IMG/VR virus record: IMGVR_UViG_3300042197_000988
Span: 1-56,438 of that record
Origin: a virus
Taxonomy: Duplodnaviria > Caudoviricetes
DNA length: 56,438 nucleotides
Reading direction: 5' to 3' (one strand)
Part shown: one piece after another, positions 1-6,296 of the stretch
Layout of the letters: each line of letters begins with the position of its first letter
Position numbering within the stretch: position 1 is the first letter of the stretch
Notes under the pieces: model-generated
Databases searched by the model: none
What the model was told of the DNA's origin: nothing
Seen by the model: only the letters and a program-made list of their open reading frames with translations
Program-made: the position numbers and the translations under genes

Positions 1-225
1 TCCGAACTGCCGCTGGAGGGCTGGCTGCTTGACGAGCCATCCGAACTGCCGCTGGAGGGCTGGCTGCTTGACGAGCCATCCGAACTGCCGCTGGAGGGCT
101 GGCTGCTTGACGAGCCATCCGAACTGCTGCTGGAGGGCTGGCTGCTTGACGAGCCATCCGAACTGCTGCTGGAGGGCTGGCTGCTTGACGAGCCATCCGA
201 ACTGCCGCTGGAGGGCTGGCTGCTG
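1..225. repeat. 39-bp tandem repeat (TCCGAACTGCCGCTGGAGGGCTGGCTGCTTGACGAGCCA), about 5.5 copies plus one copy at 56400-56438
   Basis: Directly visible; encodes [13 protein letters not shown] on the minus strand; no spacers. Confidence 0.95.
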
Positions 226-1778
226 GACGAACCGATGCCGCTGGACGAACCATCCGAACTGCCGCTGCTTGGTGAGCCAGAGCCAGAGCCAGAGCCAGAG
301 CCAGAGCCAGAGCCGGAGCCGGAGCCGGAGCCGGAGCCGGAGCCGGAGCCGGAGCCGGAGCCGGAGCCGGAGCCGGAGCCGGAGCCGGAGCCGGAGCCGG
401 AGCCGGAGCCAGAGCCGTCCGAGCCTGAATCCGAACCATCCGAGCCAGAGCCAGAGCCAGAGCCGTCCGAGCCTGAATCCGAACCATCCGAGCCCGAGCC
501 CGGACACGGCAACGACCTGTCGATGTCCGAGGTGATCATTCTCTCGAACGTGCCGGTTTCGTGGTTGTACAGGTAGTGGGTCGAGCGGTGTAGTTGCGGG
601 TTCCCGTTCCCGTCGCACGTGTCGCACCACTCCAGTTCTGCGTAGGCGGCGAAGCACGTCCCAGGAACAGAACCCGGCATATAGACAGGGAGGTGAAGCC
701 CGCAGATCGGCTCCTCGCTCCGTATGGTTTCGGATCCTTGCGGGAACGCGGCCTCTTTCTCCGCTTCGGTGCAACCGCACGTGAACCACGTTTCTTCCAC
801 GGCGACCCAAGTGCAGTTCACGACGTCCGGCGTGTAGTAGATCAGCCCGTACTGGGCACCGCTGTCGCACATCAACGCTTGGCTGGCTGGCGGCGGCGGG
901 AGTTGACACCCACCAGTTGGCGTACCGGAACAATCAGACCAAATGAGTGCGTTCGCCTCCCATGAGCACGTCGCAAGATTTGGCGTGTAGTACACAACGC
1001 CGCGTTGAGTCACGCCGTCGGGACAAAACAGCGCCGACCCGTTCGGGGCGAACGGCAGAATACAAAAACCACCGCAGCCATAGAGGCAGTCATTGAGGTT
1101 GCTGTATGTGCCGTTGGCGGCTGGCGTGCAACCACCAGAAACGCACTCGTACCCAAGCGCGACGCACTGGCCGTTGACTTCGTATGTCCCGGGCGGGCAA
1201 ACGCACCCACCGAAGTCTGGATTGCGGACGCGCCCCGGAGGGCATTTTGGTAGGCAGAGCCCGTCCCAGATTTCGTGGGTACCAAGCGTGCCGCCGCTGT
1301 CGGTCGGGCAGTCGATGCAGATGCTATTGCTGTTTCGCGTTTTATTTGGCGGACACCAGCACTCGCAGTTGTCTTCCGGGTTGTGCTCTTCTTGGCCGGG
1401 GCAGGCGTCGTAGCAAACGCCGTTGCACTCTTCTTTGCTAGCTTCGCAGATGCACTCGCATGTGTCGGGGTTCCTGACAAACCCGGACGCCGTGTTGCAC
1501 TCCGGGATGCACTCGCCACCGCACGCCTCCTGCGCTGGCGGGCACTCGCACTCGCAGGTCGCTTCGCTTCTGGTTTCGCCGGTATTCTGGCACGGCGAGG
1601 TGTCCTCGCATACGCACGAGCAGTCTTCGAGCAGCACCTTCGGCGACACGCATGCGTCGTAGTTCTGACACCGGCACTCTTTGCTGTTCGGGTCGAGTTC
1701 CCCGCACGCGCACTTGCACTCACGTTCGCTTTGATAGCACGGCTCGTCGCCGCAGTCATCGACCCATTTGCAGACCAT
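1..1778 (-). CDS. Large Cys-rich, Ser/Gly-repeat putative virion fibre protein, 5' part (continues at 56438..56273; ~635-650 aa)
   Basis: Absent from the ORF track because it crosses the contig end. Manual translation from ATG 1778 gives [25 protein letters not shown]..., about 50 Cys, five CxCxC motifs, then (SG)n and [13 protein letters not shown] repeats, with no stop before position 1. Confidence 0.85.
274..500. repeat. Hexamer microsatellite (GAGCCR)n encoding (SG)n on the minus strand
   Basis: Directly visible run of gagcca/gagccg units. Confidence 0.95.
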
Positions 1779-1790
1779 TTGATTTTTGTC

Positions 1791-3602: not shown

Positions 3603-3627
3603 CCACGATCACCGTTGCTTCTGGCGG

Positions 3628-4941
3628 CTATTTGCCAGCCAGCCTCGCAAGAGCCTTCGATGCGTTTGCTTTCACCCCTGGCGTCGCCCTAACGAACCAA
3701 GTCCCGCAGACGCCGGTTTCCAGTTGCGCGCCTGAAAACACTTCGTCGACTACGAGCTTTACACCCCAGAGCTTTCGCTTTGACTCAAACGGATGGTTGT
3801 AGTCGTGGCCACCGATCCATCCGCCGTCCTTGACCTTCGGGAGCCAGCAAGTCAAGTCTTCTATGACGGCTTCCTTCGTGTGCTCGGCGTCGATGTAGGC
3901 CATGTCAAGGCTGCGATCCTCTATTTTCGTTGAAGCGCCGACGCTTGTGTTTCGAAGCACCTTTCGGTCGTACTTTTCAGTCAACCTCGACGCTCGCTCG
4001 AAGACCCGCTCCCACTGATCGCTAGTTAGCCTCGCTGCGAGATCGCCGCTTTTTTTGTACCGCTCATTTGCAACCCCCCACTGATCGACCAAGAACGCTC
4101 TAGTGTTTGGCCTCCTTGTAAAAACCCCAAGCGAGCAATATCCGTCAGCGACGCCCACCTCTGCCCACACGTCTCGCTCTCCGAGCCTTTGCGCGATTTC
4201 ATCGCAAGGGGCTTTCTCCCACATTGTTTGCTTGATCCGCTCTCCTCGCTTCACCTTTCCGGTGAAGTGATAGATGTACCCATTCATGTATCCTGTGCAG
4301 TATTCTTCGCGGATGTGCCGCTGGTGTGCGGCCACGATGTTCCATGTATGCGGAAGCCACGTCTGCGGTACGTCAAGGTTGTGAAGCAGCACAGAGAGCG
4401 AAGCCTGTTCCGGGAGCCGCCACGGCGTCCACTTGGCAGACTCGCCAACCTCGCGCAGTTGCTTGAACAGCGGCCTGTGAATCTTCGTCGAATAAAGAAA
4501 GAATCCTCCGTTTAGGTGCTTTTCGTCATGGCACGGCTTCATCTTCATGTGCCTCGCCCACCCTTGAATGCACATGTCGCGGTGGCGGCTGATCCAGAGC
4601 CCCTTGTATTCGGTGTTGCTTGGCGGCGTGACCAGAAAATCGCGAGGAGGAGGAGTGAACTGGCGAGAAGAAACAACACCAATGTGGTCGTCCGGTACAA
4701 GCCGAAACGGCGAAGGCGCGTCCCACCGGATCAGCATGTCTGCGTCGAGTTGAAGCACACGATCAAAGTCGAGCATCTCCTCGATGGCGAACGCCTTCTG
4801 CCAGAAGTGATGCACCGGGGCAAGCGGTTTCGTGCGCTCGACGAACTCGACGCCCCACCGCTTCGCTGCCTCCTGAAACGACGCCCTTGATCTTGGGTGC
4901 AGGCTTTTTCCGCCGACGTTGAGCACGAGGAGGGCATCCAT
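3628..4941 (-). CDS. GT-A (GT8-like) glycosyltransferase fused to a class I SAM methyltransferase (Methyltransf_24-like)
   Basis: N-terminal LQLDADML (DxD), LNGGFF, PEQASL, HTWN, IYHFTG; C-terminal AEVGVADG, FLVDQW, YIDAEH, VKDGGWIGGHDY; TAATG coupling to the upstream gene. Confidence 0.85.
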   Translation of the reverse strand: MDALLVLNVGGKSLHPRSRASFQEAAKRWGVEFVERTKPLAPVHHFWQKAFAIEEMLDFDRVLQLDADMLIRWDAPSPFRLVPDDHIGVVSSRQFTPPPRDFLVTPPSNTEYKGLWISRHRDMCIQGWARHMKMKPCHDEKHLNGGFFLYSTKIHRPLFKQLREVGESAKWTPWRLPEQASLSVLLHNLDVPQTWLPHTWNIVAAHQRHIREEYCTGYMNGYIYHFTGKVKRGERIKQTMWEKAPCDEIAQRLGERDVWAEVGVADGYCSLGVFTRRPNTRAFLVDQWGVANERYKKSGDLAARLTSDQWERVFERASRLTEKYDRKVLRNTSVGASTKIEDRSLDMAYIDAEHTKEAVIEDLTCWLPKVKDGGWIGGHDYNHPFESKRKLWGVKLVVDEVFSGAQLETGVCGTWFVRATPGVKANASKALARLAGK

Positions 4942-6296
4942 TATTTTCGATCTCCTTTTTTGACGTGCGCGACAGCCATGGCGCACTGTTCTTCACTTGG
5001 GTGCAGGTCGAGAAACTCGACAATCTTGTCAACGACGAGTGCCGGTCGGCTCAAAACGTCCGCGTAGTCGACGGTAAGAACTTGGTTCTTCGGTAGCGAC
5101 GAAATAAACCGAGTCTTCTCTTCCCAGAGCCACTGCTGAACCCGTTCGCACTGCTCGTCGCTCGCGTTGAGCCATCCTTTCGCGGTTCGGCTCCTGCGTT
5201 GCAGGCTGTCGATGGACTCGTGGAGTGGCCTGTTGCAGTGGACTACCTTGAGCCCACTGCCGCAGATGTCCTTGAGCATGCCGCCCATCGCGCAGAGATG
5301 CGGATACTTGCCGCCGACTCGGATGCCTTTCTTTTTCGCTTTCGTGATCCGCCCGTTGATCCAGTTGCGAAGATTGCGGCGGATCTGGTCTGGCTGGTGC
5401 GTGAACCCAGCGGCAGGAAACCGCGCCGCTCGCTCGCAGATCCTCGCAAGGTTTGCCGCCTCGCCGCCGCCGCCGTTGCGGGACTCCCAGCCGACCAACT
5501 TGTCGCCCATGTTGACGCCGAGCTTGTGAAGCATCATGGCGACGCACGAACTGCCGGAGCGGTGCAGCCCAACCACGGCGACAAACTGGCCGCAGTTTGT
5601 GATCGGGGCTGTTTCGTGGACGACAAGGTCGCGGGCTTCTTCTGCGACCCCCGCACGCGTCCACCACCGCTCTCCGGTTTCTTTCCAACTGATGTCAGAG
5701 TGGCCGCTCGCTTGTCCGCAGAGCCACTGCGCCGGAGCGTAGTATCCAGCGGTCGATGCCTTGTGCAACCTGCCGTAGTGGTGGTCGATGTGATTCCTGT
5801 TGACCCAGCCTTGCGTTTCGTTCAGCCAGCGATAAAGCGTCGTGATGCCTTCACGGCCTCGCACCGCGTATGCGTGCGTCCTGTTGATGTTTTGCGCCTG
5901 AACTACAAGCGGGTTGTTCTCGATGATCTTTGCCTTCTTGAGATGCTGCCCACCGATATACGCCTGCACCCAATCGTTTGGCAGTGCCTCCAGGTATCTC
6001 GCCGCCGCTTCACTGAAGTTGCTGCAGAATGTGGCGTCATCCTCGAAGATCAAGACGCTGTTGATGCCCCGATTCAGCGCGTCTTCGAGGATGTTGACGT
6101 GCGACCTGTAGCAGCCCCACGCCCCGCCGCCCTGCCGCCACCACTCCGGGTGCTTGCAGAGGCGGCCATCGACGGCCCTGACGACTTCCACTTCGCGGAA
6201 CGGCCAGTTTGCTGGCATGCGTTTCATGAACGCATCCAGCCTGTCGTGACGGCGCTCGAGAGATATTACGACGACTCGTTCGAAGAAGTCTTTCAT
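4941..6296 (-). CDS. GT25 family glycosyltransferase fused to a PAPS-dependent sulfotransferase domain
   Basis: VISLERRHDR, AVDG, GCYRSH, LIFEDDA, THAY (GT25); VVGLHRSGSS (5'-PSB loop), KYPHL, NRPLHESIDS, VDYADVL (sulfotransferase). Confidence 0.85.
   Translation of the reverse strand: MKDFFERVVVISLERRHDRLDAFMKRMPANWPFREVEVVRAVDGRLCKHPEWWRQGGGAWGCYRSHVNILEDALNRGINSVLIFEDDATFCSNFSEAAARYLEALPNDWVQAYIGGQHLKKAKIIENNPLVVQAQNINRTHAYAVRGREGITTLYRWLNETQGWVNRNHIDHHYGRLHKASTAGYYAPAQWLCGQASGHSDISWKETGERWWTRAGVAEEARDLVVHETAPITNCGQFVAVVGLHRSGSSCVAMMLHKLGVNMGDKLVGWESRNGGGGEAANLARICERAARFPAAGFTHQPDQIRRNLRNWINGRITKAKKKGIRVGGKYPHLCAMGGMLKDICGSGLKVVHCNRPLHESIDSLQRRSRTAKGWLNASDEQCERVQQWLWEEKTRFISSLPKNQVLTVDYADVLSRPALVVDKIVEFLDLHPSEEQCAMAVAHVKKGDRK

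Follow-up and report, generated by a model that had tools for sequence, protein, structure and literature searches.

The window analysed here, i.e. the complete 56,438-bp stretch of the virus record IMGVR_UViG_3300042197_000988 (Duplodnaviria; Caudoviricetes), constitutes the entire assembly as a single contig and represents a temperate long-tailed phage with nearly all genes on the minus strand (according to PHROG and Pfam scans). Its tail-end gene array contains two fused enzymes, a fusion of a family 25 glycosyltransferase (GT) with a sulfotransferase (enzyme 1, GT25-ST; 4941–6296, minus strand) and a fusion of a GT of the GT-A fold with a methyltransferase (enzyme 2; 3628–4941, minus strand); these are followed by two large serine-rich proteins, termed Ser603 (1791–3602, minus strand) and Cys592 (3–1778, minus strand; running off the contig start). 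This group of genes, together with the 234-aa protein g234 (6306–7010, minus strand) and the small Cys-containing protein g147 (55833–56276, minus strand; recognized by its homologues in related loci), is considered in the following as a probable glycosylation cassette for tail-end proteins of the phage itself.

The tail-end operon and its two fused enzymes

From the tape measure gene (9416–12817, minus strand; PHROG tape-measure families, best E 6.1e-23), whose stop codon overlaps the ATG of the following gene, to g147 all genes are located on one strand and are separated by spacers of 1–25 nt or joined by stop/start overlaps; the single longer spacer of the array contains a 40-aa open reading frame (ORF). 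An earlier note made from the sequence had placed the enzymes and the Ser-rich proteins inside the tail operon and had described the enzymes as coupled. Their position downstream of the tape measure gene on the same strand agrees with the former statement, and the overlap of the enzyme 1 stop codon with the enzyme 2 ATG (TAATG at 4941), preceded by an AAGGAG sequence, argues for translational coupling as presumed in the latter. The counts of promoter- and terminator-like sites were at or below the shuffle expectation, with the limit that the consensus may not fit planctomycete promoters.

Both domains of the GT25–sulfotransferase fusion recognized in the earlier note scored above the Pfam cut-offs: residues 8–133 of enzyme 1 matched Glyco_transf_25 (PF01755; E 7.5e-11, 42.7 bits, cut-off 24), as did its homologues from the related loci L051 and L004, and residues 239–431 matched Sulfotransfer_3 (PF13469; E 9.3e-8, 33 bits, cut-off 27), with Sulfotransfer_1 (PF00685) at 22.3 bits versus a cut-off of 22. 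Among solved structures, the sulfotransferase domain revealed weak profile matches to CurM and the cytosolic SULTs (E 0.004–0.03). In the alignment of 30 homologues (alignment A1), E85, D86 and D87 (EDD), the residues G243, H245, S247, G248, S249 and S250 of a GLHRSGSS-type loop (243–250), and R356, S361 and S364 were invariant. We take the EDD motif to be the conserved acidic metal/nucleotide-sugar motif of GT-A enzymes; the loop presumably binds the 5'-phosphosulfate, and R356, S361 and S364 presumably represent the 3'-phosphate-binding Arg and Ser residues of the 3'-phosphoadenosine 5'-phosphosulfate (PAPS) site. The pattern of invariant residues would thus be compatible with an active GT-A centre and with a site for PAPS. 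The GT25 domain matched the solved procollagen galactosyltransferase (E 1.7e-12) and mimivirus R655 (E 1.2e-8) far better than a solved bacterial "glycosyltransferase family 25 protein" (E 5e-3); in consequence, these profile comparisons favor a protein as the acceptor. A collagen-type hydroxylysine target was dropped, since no lysyl hydroxylase is present and the candidate carriers consist of Ser tracts. Membrane segments were found in neither of the two enzymes.

Enzyme 2 probably comprises 437 aa instead of the 452 aa of the longest ORF because its homologues begin at the Met of the TAATG overlap. Residues 276–396 matched Methyltransf_24 (PF13578; E 7.9e-12, 46.4 bits, cut-off 26.3); for the N-terminal 255 residues Pfam gave no family, even at E 10, and a sequence search of the PDB with residues 1–255 gave no match. 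In the AlphaFold model (predicted local distance difference test, pLDDT, 90.5; predicted template modelling score, pTM, 0.88), residues 15–254 showed a retaining-type GT-A fold on comparison by Foldseek and VIA-align; by this modeled structure, the N-terminal part is a glycosyltransferase domain. Its best structural match was A64R of PBCV-1 (Z 17.8, root mean square deviation 2.8, 187/204 residues, 12% identity), with further matches to WbbM (Z 15.6), UGGT/GT24 (15.5), glycogenin (15.2), GT6 enzymes (approximately 15), GlyE (14.7) and LARGE1 (14.7). Across 22 homologues from related loci (alignment A2), D81, D83, N159, G161 and H240 were invariant, D81 and D83 making up a DxD motif. The earlier note had called this protein a GT8–methyltransferase fusion: The methyltransferase and a glycosyltransferase domain were recovered by Pfam and the model, respectively, whereas the assignment to GT8 was not confirmed, as there was no Pfam match and the GT8 members glycogenin, GlyE and LARGE1 were matched no better than A64R, WbbM, UGGT and the GT6 enzymes. 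The C-terminal domain (aligned from approximately residue 226–230) resembled cation-dependent O-methyltransferases (SafC, Z 15.9–16.1; MeT1 of Mycobacterium hassiacum, Z 16.0); the PHROG label "DNA methyltransferase" for enzyme 2 has no backing from the Methyltransf_24, SafC and MeT1 matches. Homologues of the GT-A part were present downstream of GT25-ST in 25 of the 89 loci with at least 3 kb of downstream sequence, either as a stand-alone form of approximately 340 aa or fused to the methyltransferase. NCBIfam offered no name for either enzyme or for g234.

Serine-rich neighbors in the window and in related loci

Ser603 and Cys592 were the sole ORFs of the 56-kb window that passed a Ser-tract filter (length of 120 aa or more; Ser making up 60% or more of a 40-residue stretch, or S/G/T/D together making up 90% or more and Ser no less than 30%). 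Ser603 consists of approximately 375 aa of poly-Ser, SSSP, SSSA, (SG)n and GGSGS repeats, succeeded by a 228-aa Cys-containing globular domain that ends in NPLP; Cys592 starts with a 425-aa Cys-rich repeat domain, followed by (SG)n/DGSG tracts and repeats of a 12-residue sequence. The latter protein continues across the contig junction at 56273–56438 (minus strand), as revealed by the terminal overlap and the translation, ends in ...SQNPLP and overlaps with its TGA the ATG of g147 (ATGA); the joined reading comprises 638 codons from stop to stop, with a total protein length of at least 634 aa and a repeat number that is possibly under-assembled. The tracts of the two giant Ser/Ser-Gly proteins described in the earlier note were confirmed, but the second of them is not wholly contained in the linear window. 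The contig ends overlap by 39 bp (1–39 and 56400–56438) inside a repeat with a period of 39 bp that encodes 13-residue units, and for this reason the genome is most likely circular or circularly permuted and was cut by the assembler within the repeat, the copy number of which may have been collapsed. At the DNA level, the Ser tracts consist of almost perfect tandem repeats with units of 6 to 54 bp, several of them 97–100% identical; the Ser frame is anchored by the globular domains and the conserved C-terminal NPLP. Neither candidate carrier exhibited a signal-peptide-like or hydrophobic N-terminus or a match to known tail fibre families. No homologue of the Ser603 C-terminal domain was found among the proteins of 331–1056 aa, whereas the N-terminal domain of Cys592 had 29 homologues among 1.84 billion representatives; four of the 12 best fetched ones, and also a related ORF of locus L019, end in a Ser tract plus NPLP. 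The model of this domain (pLDDT 68.3, pTM 0.34) had no PDB match at E <= 0.001, with only weak EGF/TNFR/LRP-like rows. In g234, a short Ser/Gly/Asp tract of approximately 27 aa separates the N-terminal domain from a C-terminal motif that is conserved; g234 homologues in loci L001–L016 and L027 contain long poly-Ser tracts at the same place and are located upstream of GT25-ST. Judged from these sequences, g234 is likely to be a carrier of the modification as well.

The GT25-ST fusion is conserved among its relatives: 435 homologues at E <= 0.001 were obtained among 8000 candidates scored, with identities from 92% downward, the few named ones belonging to Pirellulales and Phycisphaera. A scan of viral contigs with the single GT25-ST sequence found nothing; with alignment A1 as query, 48 viral loci were recovered, and the species-representative genomes yielded 174 matches, the best 80 of which, corresponding to 79 genome loci, were kept. 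Of the genome locus titles, 78 of 79 name a planctomycete taxon and the remaining one only a "bacterium", which fits the host guessed in the earlier note; a planctomycete is, by this distribution, probably the host of the phage. Several cultured strains carry two or three GT25-ST copies, with three in Novipirellula rosea JCM 17759. Cultured and sequenced carriers include Novipirellula sp. SH528, Stieleria marina K23_9, Stieleria magnilauensis TBK1r, Novipirellula rosea JCM 17759 and Rubripirellula obstinata CECT 8602, and the idea is therefore amenable to bench testing.

The tail context was preserved as well: In 72 of the 91 loci with at least 7 kb of upstream sequence, a tape measure gene, the protein after it, or a protein of the g234 or A3 type (see below) was present upstream on the same strand; these markers were identified by iterative searches with seeds that included the 295-aa protein following the tape measure of the window and its L051 counterpart, and none were found with the seeds used in the other 19 loci. 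Locus L051 (Novipirellula sp. SH528) starts with the tail tube/major tail protein and the tape measure and continues with a 263-aa protein, a Ser-rich 707-aa protein, a g147 homologue and GT25-ST; these are succeeded at 11286–14775 by genes for a 418-aa protein without a name, two GT2 proteins and one radical SAM enzyme. The Stieleria marina locus L066, the scan of which began at the tape measure, repeats this order from there on with a Ser-rich 775-aa protein; behind GT25-ST, at 11347–13620, it carries two GT2 genes, one of them just under the cut-off for TET-associated glycosyltransferases, and a radical SAM gene without the 418-aa gene. By this gene content, the glycan pathway of these Pirellulaceae prophages may be longer or may have a second target. 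Large repeat proteins were also encoded downstream of GT25-ST in L121 (3682–7008; 1109 aa with an N-terminal SSWSSSW repeat) and L127 (12720–18857; 2046 aa with SPSVSPSP repeats), which may represent non-phage or different carrier contexts.

The co-occurrence of the GT/sulfotransferase genes with Ser-rich genes among relatives, the test proposed in the earlier note, gave a positive result: in 81 of the 102 loci with at least 3.5 kb of upstream sequence, the 5 kb upstream of GT25-ST contained a Ser-rich ORF in the same orientation. Flagged ORFs numbered 97 in the 1.01 Mb within 5 kb of GT25-ST and 0 in the 0.78 Mb farther away. It might be objected that the tracts are unmodified flexible spacers or entropic bristles and that the enzymes act on g147, a small molecule or another virion protein, e.g. 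the capsid; Ser/Gly-rich linkers are indeed common in modular tail fibres, the acceptor is deduced indirectly, and the independent support from co-variation amounts to only 1–2 events. The Ser-rich ORFs are, however, confined to the surroundings of GT25-ST, the tracts reach 40% Ser over 900–1000 aa and thereby far exceed ordinary linkers, and the major capsid protein of the window is devoid of such a tract; we regard this explanation as quite unlikely in comparison to a glycosylation of the tracts.

The carriers belong to differing families. A 175-aa N-terminal domain, designated A3, is common to 63 loci, whereas carriers of the window's clade possess another N-terminal domain, the g234 type (alignment A6), that revealed no similarity to A3 by hhalign (probability 1%), with a very distant homology being possible; a third class of carriers ends in NPLP. 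C-terminal domains are exchanged between A3-type and g234-type carriers. When masked, the Ser-rich ORFs formed 14 clusters, one of them with 80 members; since this largest cluster is tied together by shared C-terminal and not N-terminal domains, the 14 clusters do not equal a count of independent families. The carriers thus combine an N-terminal part that is conserved with exchangeable distal domains, the two being joined by Ser spacers that vary greatly in length; this arrangement would correspond to the architecture of receptor-binding tail proteins. Among 6518 ORFs with a length of 120 aa or more (loci plus joined window), 16 had an NPLP C-terminus, all on the GT25-ST strand and confined to the window's clade (L001, L005–L009, L014–L017, L019, L027, and twice in the window). 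As this tetrapeptide terminates proteins with otherwise unrelated globular parts, it suggests a docking or processing signal.

These features also bear on the reading that the Ser proteins are glycosylated but do not belong to the virion, being set free upon lysis to serve as soluble, mucin-like decoys or as matrix material. The position of Ser603 and Cys592 at the very end of the operon and their missing match to known tail fibre families would be compatible with such a release. In most relatives, however, the Ser-tract protein is encoded by the second gene after the tape measure, i.e. where tail-tip proteins are encoded, the carriers combine conserved N-terminal with shuffled distal domains, and NPLP resembles a docking motif; a purely soluble role is thus considered improbable, and a location of the glycosylated proteins in the tail is preferred. 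For Ser603 and Cys592 themselves, gene position and modular architecture suggest that they may be virion fibres.

The presence and absence of A3 was compared by whole-genome hidden Markov model searches in 201 evenly sampled genomes of Planctomycetota. The domain occurred in 17 of these genomes at 23 places; a full-length GT25-ST was confined to one genome of the sample (G001), with three partial-domain matches elsewhere. From the 22 A3 places outside G001, 20 were fetched (G024:C413 and the truncated G033:C64 were dropped), and GT25-ST was absent from the fetched stretches of all 20. In 19 of them the A3 protein lacked a Ser/Thr tract (maximum 33% in 30 residues); the exception, L138 (G171:C35), contains a Thr/Gly tract, and the second ORF downstream of it encodes a GT2 protein of 593 aa. 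In locus L136 (G073:C1), likewise without GT25-ST, a Ser-rich ORF distinct from A3 is located at the prophage end and matches Hint (intein-like) weakly. Other GT families may, as these neighborhoods indicate, substitute for GT25-ST in some A3 loci. By comparison, 62 of the 63 A3 ORFs adjoining GT25-ST possess a Ser/Thr tract, and in the remaining locus (L104) a separate Ser-rich ORF is situated between the A3 ORF and GT25-ST. A functional link between enzyme and tract is indicated by an adjacency kept over deep divergence (identities down to 33–35% for GT25-ST and approximately 30% for A3), by its recurrence with carriers of differing N-terminal families, and by the near-versus-far contrast of the Ser-rich ORFs.

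The most tightly linked neighbor of GT25-ST in the relatives was g147, with homologues in 84 of 127 loci (upstream of GT25-ST in 83, downstream in one, L017); counted from the table, the distance is at most about 62 nt in some 70 of them. NPLP proteins separate the two genes in L017 as well as in the window. The family is virus-only and shares invariant Gly, Cys-x-Cys, Trp-Leu, Glu, Arg and Pro positions; Pfam, NCBIfam and the protein Atlas provided no name, the latter giving only unnamed viral clusters. As a guess, g147 might be an accessory or specificity subunit of GT25-ST; the complex prediction from alignments A1 and A5 scored 0.18, the mark being 0.32.

The linkage to g147 and to Ser-tract proteins of differing families is left unexplained by a lysogenic-conversion moron, i.e. 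by enzymes expressed from the prophage that modify the lipopolysaccharide (LPS) core or exopolysaccharide of the host through the addition, sulfation and methylation of sugars, alter receptors and block superinfection, with the Ser proteins being unrelated to them. Several features would suit such a moron: The phage is temperate (integrase at 52869–53726, plus strand), many relatives are prophages in planctomycete chromosomes, Pfam annotates GT25 as an "LPS biosynthesis protein" family, the closest PHROG families are classed as "moron, auxiliary metabolic gene and host takeover", and morons are frequently found at the end of late operons. On the other hand, the enzyme genes exhibit no promoter or terminator signal of their own and share stop/start overlaps with the flanking late genes, the window scans detected neither a membrane segment nor a flippase-like partner, and the GT25 domain scores far better against protein-directed enzymes than against the solved bacterial GT25 protein. 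A host-directed modification is therefore rather unlikely as compared with the glycosylation of the phage's own tail-end proteins.

A proposed cytoplasmic cassette and its genomic setting

The reading that we favor, and hold to be fairly probable, is that of a cytoplasmic phage cassette that O-glycosylates the Ser tracts of tail-end proteins. Encoded in the late tail operon, the soluble enzymes would act in the cytoplasm before assembly, as suggested by the lack of membrane segments in the enzymes and of signal-peptide-like starts in the carriers; g234, Ser603 and Cys592 would be the candidate carriers. The GT25 domain would place a first sugar on Ser (or Thr) hydroxyls, the fused PAPS-type sulfotransferase domain would sulfate this sugar or the growing glycan, and the retaining GT-A domain of enzyme 2 would add a sugar that the fused methyltransferase could O-methylate. 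The predicted product is a dense, negatively charged, mucin-like brush on long spacers that link a conserved virion-anchoring part to swappable distal domains. We infer the Ser tracts as acceptors, the order of the steps and the identities of the sugars. That sulfate and methyl groups go on the glycan is suggested by domain-fusion (Rosetta-stone) reasoning, because the sulfotransferase is fused family-wide and the methyltransferase is fused to the second GT in the window's clade; glycans both sulfated and methylated are accordingly plausible, with a clearly smaller likelihood than the glycosylation as such. Equally tentative is the extended proposal of a three-part module (g147, GT25-ST and the GT-A enzyme) that would make sulfated (and methylated) O-glycans on the tail-tip Ser spacers, with the polyanionic brush acting in adsorption to hosts that bind and degrade sulfated polysaccharides; it might then constitute the first phage-built sulfated glycoconjugate, a viral counterpart of mucins or proteoglycans. 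The term "proteoglycan-like" used in the earlier note is to be read as an analogy only, given that the Pfam and PHROG scans showed no xylosyltransferase or glycosaminoglycan polymerase, and the same holds for the wording of a food-mimic bait.

Several observations weigh against the glycosylation of the Ser tracts or limit its reach. The Ser-tract filter was not passed by 21 of the 102 loci, and eight of 16 misses examined show no tract (the other eight have a shorter Ser/Thr, Gly/Thr or Ser/Pro tract in a neighboring ORF, in seven cases directly upstream and in one downstream). On a FastTree phylogeny of the A3 domain, the GT25-ST label corresponds to two changes (one on supported branches); the contrast of 62/63 versus 1/20 cannot reach significance in a sign test because it contains only 1–2 independent events, whereas a minimum of 6 concordant independent pairs would be required. 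In the window, the giant Ser proteins are situated downstream of the enzymes and the tract of the upstream g234 is short. The virion membership of Ser603 and Cys592 is deduced from position only, the Ser603 globular domain is without homologue, and the model of Cys592 is mediocre (pLDDT 68) and without fold match. GT25 also includes LPS-core enzymes, so that an envelope target is possible. No nucleotide-sugar or PAPS genes were recognizable in the window by the Pfam and PHROG scans; the donors must therefore come from the host. The link to this host is indirect: A terminase genome scan gave no planctomycete prophage and one Sphingomonas match at 32%, and among isolated phages there was no close relative by terminase (best identity 46.7%, to Firmicutes phages, i.e. 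at most 47%).

With regard to the other genes of the operon, the 295-aa protein (8529–9416, minus strand), encoded at the place of a distal tail protein, had no family match and weak tblastn matches (24–30% identity) behind the tape measure in viral loci (e.g. L001 and L005–L010). It is followed by an 83-aa tail tip-domain protein (8020–8271, minus strand; Pfam PF24243 Phage_tail_C, E 4.5e-14, and PHROG tail families) and by a 287-aa protein (7157–8020, minus strand; phrog_10356 "virion structural protein", E 5.1e-22); in L004, a 1086-aa protein contains three stretches matching phrog_10356 and also Laminin_G_3. The 40-aa ORF mentioned above (7038–7160, minus strand; identified by sequence and translation), the ATG of which overlaps the stop codon of the 287-aa gene, is very hydrophobic with one or two membrane-spanning stretches, which is odd for a tail operon. 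The PHROG and Pfam scans further identified the terminase (21233–22852), the portal (19941–21236) and the major head protein (17604–19010) in the minus-strand array, the integrase given above, as well as head-tail adaptor, tail assembly chaperone and replication genes. Between the adaptor and neck genes, a 218-aa protein (15682–16338, minus strand) matched 21 PHROG families and no Pfam family; the matches, mostly to tail fibre and tail protein families, cover a short stretch (residues approximately 90–200) and may reflect a shared fibre motif, oddly placed upstream of the tail tube region. At 49373–51525 (minus strand), an AAA_5 (dynein-related/MoxR-like) ATPase, which bears the PHROG label "porphyrin biosynthesis", adjoins a DUF7192 protein; the two look like a CobS/CobT-like pair.

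The window also carries a cytosine-hypermodification cluster on the minus strand that comprises, by Pfam, a TET-associated glycosyltransferase (TAGT, PF20691; 23326–24198), a radical SAM/SPASM protein (25052–25942), a Tet_JBP oxygenase (25943–26866) and a C5 DNA methylase (33055–33765), and by the scan of the window a ParB-like protein (26835–27503); an unnamed 305-aa ORF lies between the TAGT and radical SAM/SPASM genes. Judged from this gene set, the phage probably glycosylates 5-hydroxymethylcytosine (5hmC) in its own DNA. On account of the cluster, it could be supposed that the tail-operon GTs extend the DNA glycan and add sugars, sulfate or methyl groups to the hypermodified cytosine: According to passages of a preprint (bioRxiv 10.1101/2023.12.21.572611), 5hmC is decorated with mono- to trisaccharides by phage GTs, which are relatives of LPS enzymes. 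The same passages describe DNA-hypermodification pathways as usually clustered, and in the window the DNA cluster is compact and 17–20 kb away from the tail enzymes; homologues of the six DNA-modification proteins of the window were not encountered within 10 kb of GT25-ST in any of the 127 loci, and the preprint (bioRxiv 10.1101/2023.12.21.572611) makes no mention of sulfotransferases. A function of the tail enzymes in DNA modification is hence very improbable, and the Ser tracts are retained as the presumptive acceptors.

Comparison with known systems

A close functional parallel may be provided by cluster F1 mycobacteriophages: For Che8 and Rita, virion glycosylation was reportedly described by Freeman et al. 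in 2023 (Cell Host Microbe). In these phages, phage-encoded soluble GTs modify the phage's own structural proteins, and two GT domains are encoded here too. In contrast to the mycobacteriophage enzymes, which are encoded near the 3' end of the genome and for which the major capsid protein is the carrier named in the parts of the source considered (PMC11256854), the enzymes of the window are embedded in the tail operon beside Ser-tract tail-end proteins. The host phylum differs, and the GT25 domain and the unclassified GT-A domain are fused to a sulfotransferase and a methyltransferase. The capsid gene (17604–19010) fails the Ser-tract filter, which only the two tail-end ORFs pass.

The chlorovirus enzyme A064R of PBCV-1 is, as far as the sections considered state (PMC9614988), a soluble GT-GT-methyltransferase protein that builds a methylated capsid glycan in the cytoplasm. 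Enzyme 2 shares with it an A64R-type GT-A domain and an O-methyltransferase-like domain, a likeness of architecture and not of sequence family; it lacks the second (middle) GT domain of A064R. A064R in turn serves the N-linked glycans of a eukaryotic giant virus capsid, with no sulfotransferase involved. According to the same sections (PMC9614988), it is a planctomycete, Lacipirellula parvula, that holds the best bacterial homologue of the second A064R GT domain (31% identity), a second and independent link between a chlorovirus glycan enzyme and a planctomycete gene.

The solved relatives nearest to the GT25 domain are COLGALT1 and mimivirus R655, with a match that covers the first 146 profile positions only. 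COLGALT1 glycosylates a hydroxyl group (hydroxylysine, in collagen) on a repetitive structural protein; unlike this system, the window is without lysyl hydroxylase, and its tracts are composed of Ser instead of Gly-X-Lys. The serine-rich repeat adhesins of Gram-positive bacteria are O-glycosylated on very long Ser repeats in the cytoplasm by enzymes of adjacent GT genes, and GlyE of Streptococcus pneumoniae (GT8) was among the structural matches of enzyme 2. These adhesins, however, are cellular proteins and not phage parts, and their systems comprise a signal peptide, an accessory Sec system, a cell-wall anchor and the initiating pair GtfA/B; accessory Sec, signal peptide, LPXTG or GtfA/B-type GT4 enzymes were absent from the window scans. 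Synthesis of animal glycosaminoglycans depends on a Ser-Gly xylosyltransferase and glycosaminoglycan polymerases, and the likeness to animal proteoglycans is therefore one of composition only (SG and DGSG tracts). In the Gtr seroconversion systems of temperate phages, the sugar-modifying enzymes are membrane-bound, accompanied by a flippase and encoded beside the integrase, whereas the enzymes considered here are soluble proteins whose genes lie within the tail operon in linkage with those of Ser-tract proteins.

In titles and abstracts, with subscription journals outside the scope, the literature contained neither tail glycosylation in a planctomycete phage nor a virion-directed phage sulfotransferase. 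If correct, the proposed function of this conserved and widespread cassette would bear on the adsorption to planctomycetes, the surfaces and diets of which are rich in sulfated glycans, on the use of hypervariable Ser-repeat spacers in receptor-binding proteins, and on GT25 enzymes as bacterial protein O-glycosyltransferases. Published cases of virion glycosylation by a virus's own enzymes concern mycobacteriophages and, on the eukaryotic side, giant viruses. With the present cassette, it would reach another bacterial phylum and the tail tip, and sulfation, for which the titles and abstracts gave no example in any phage, would be an addition.

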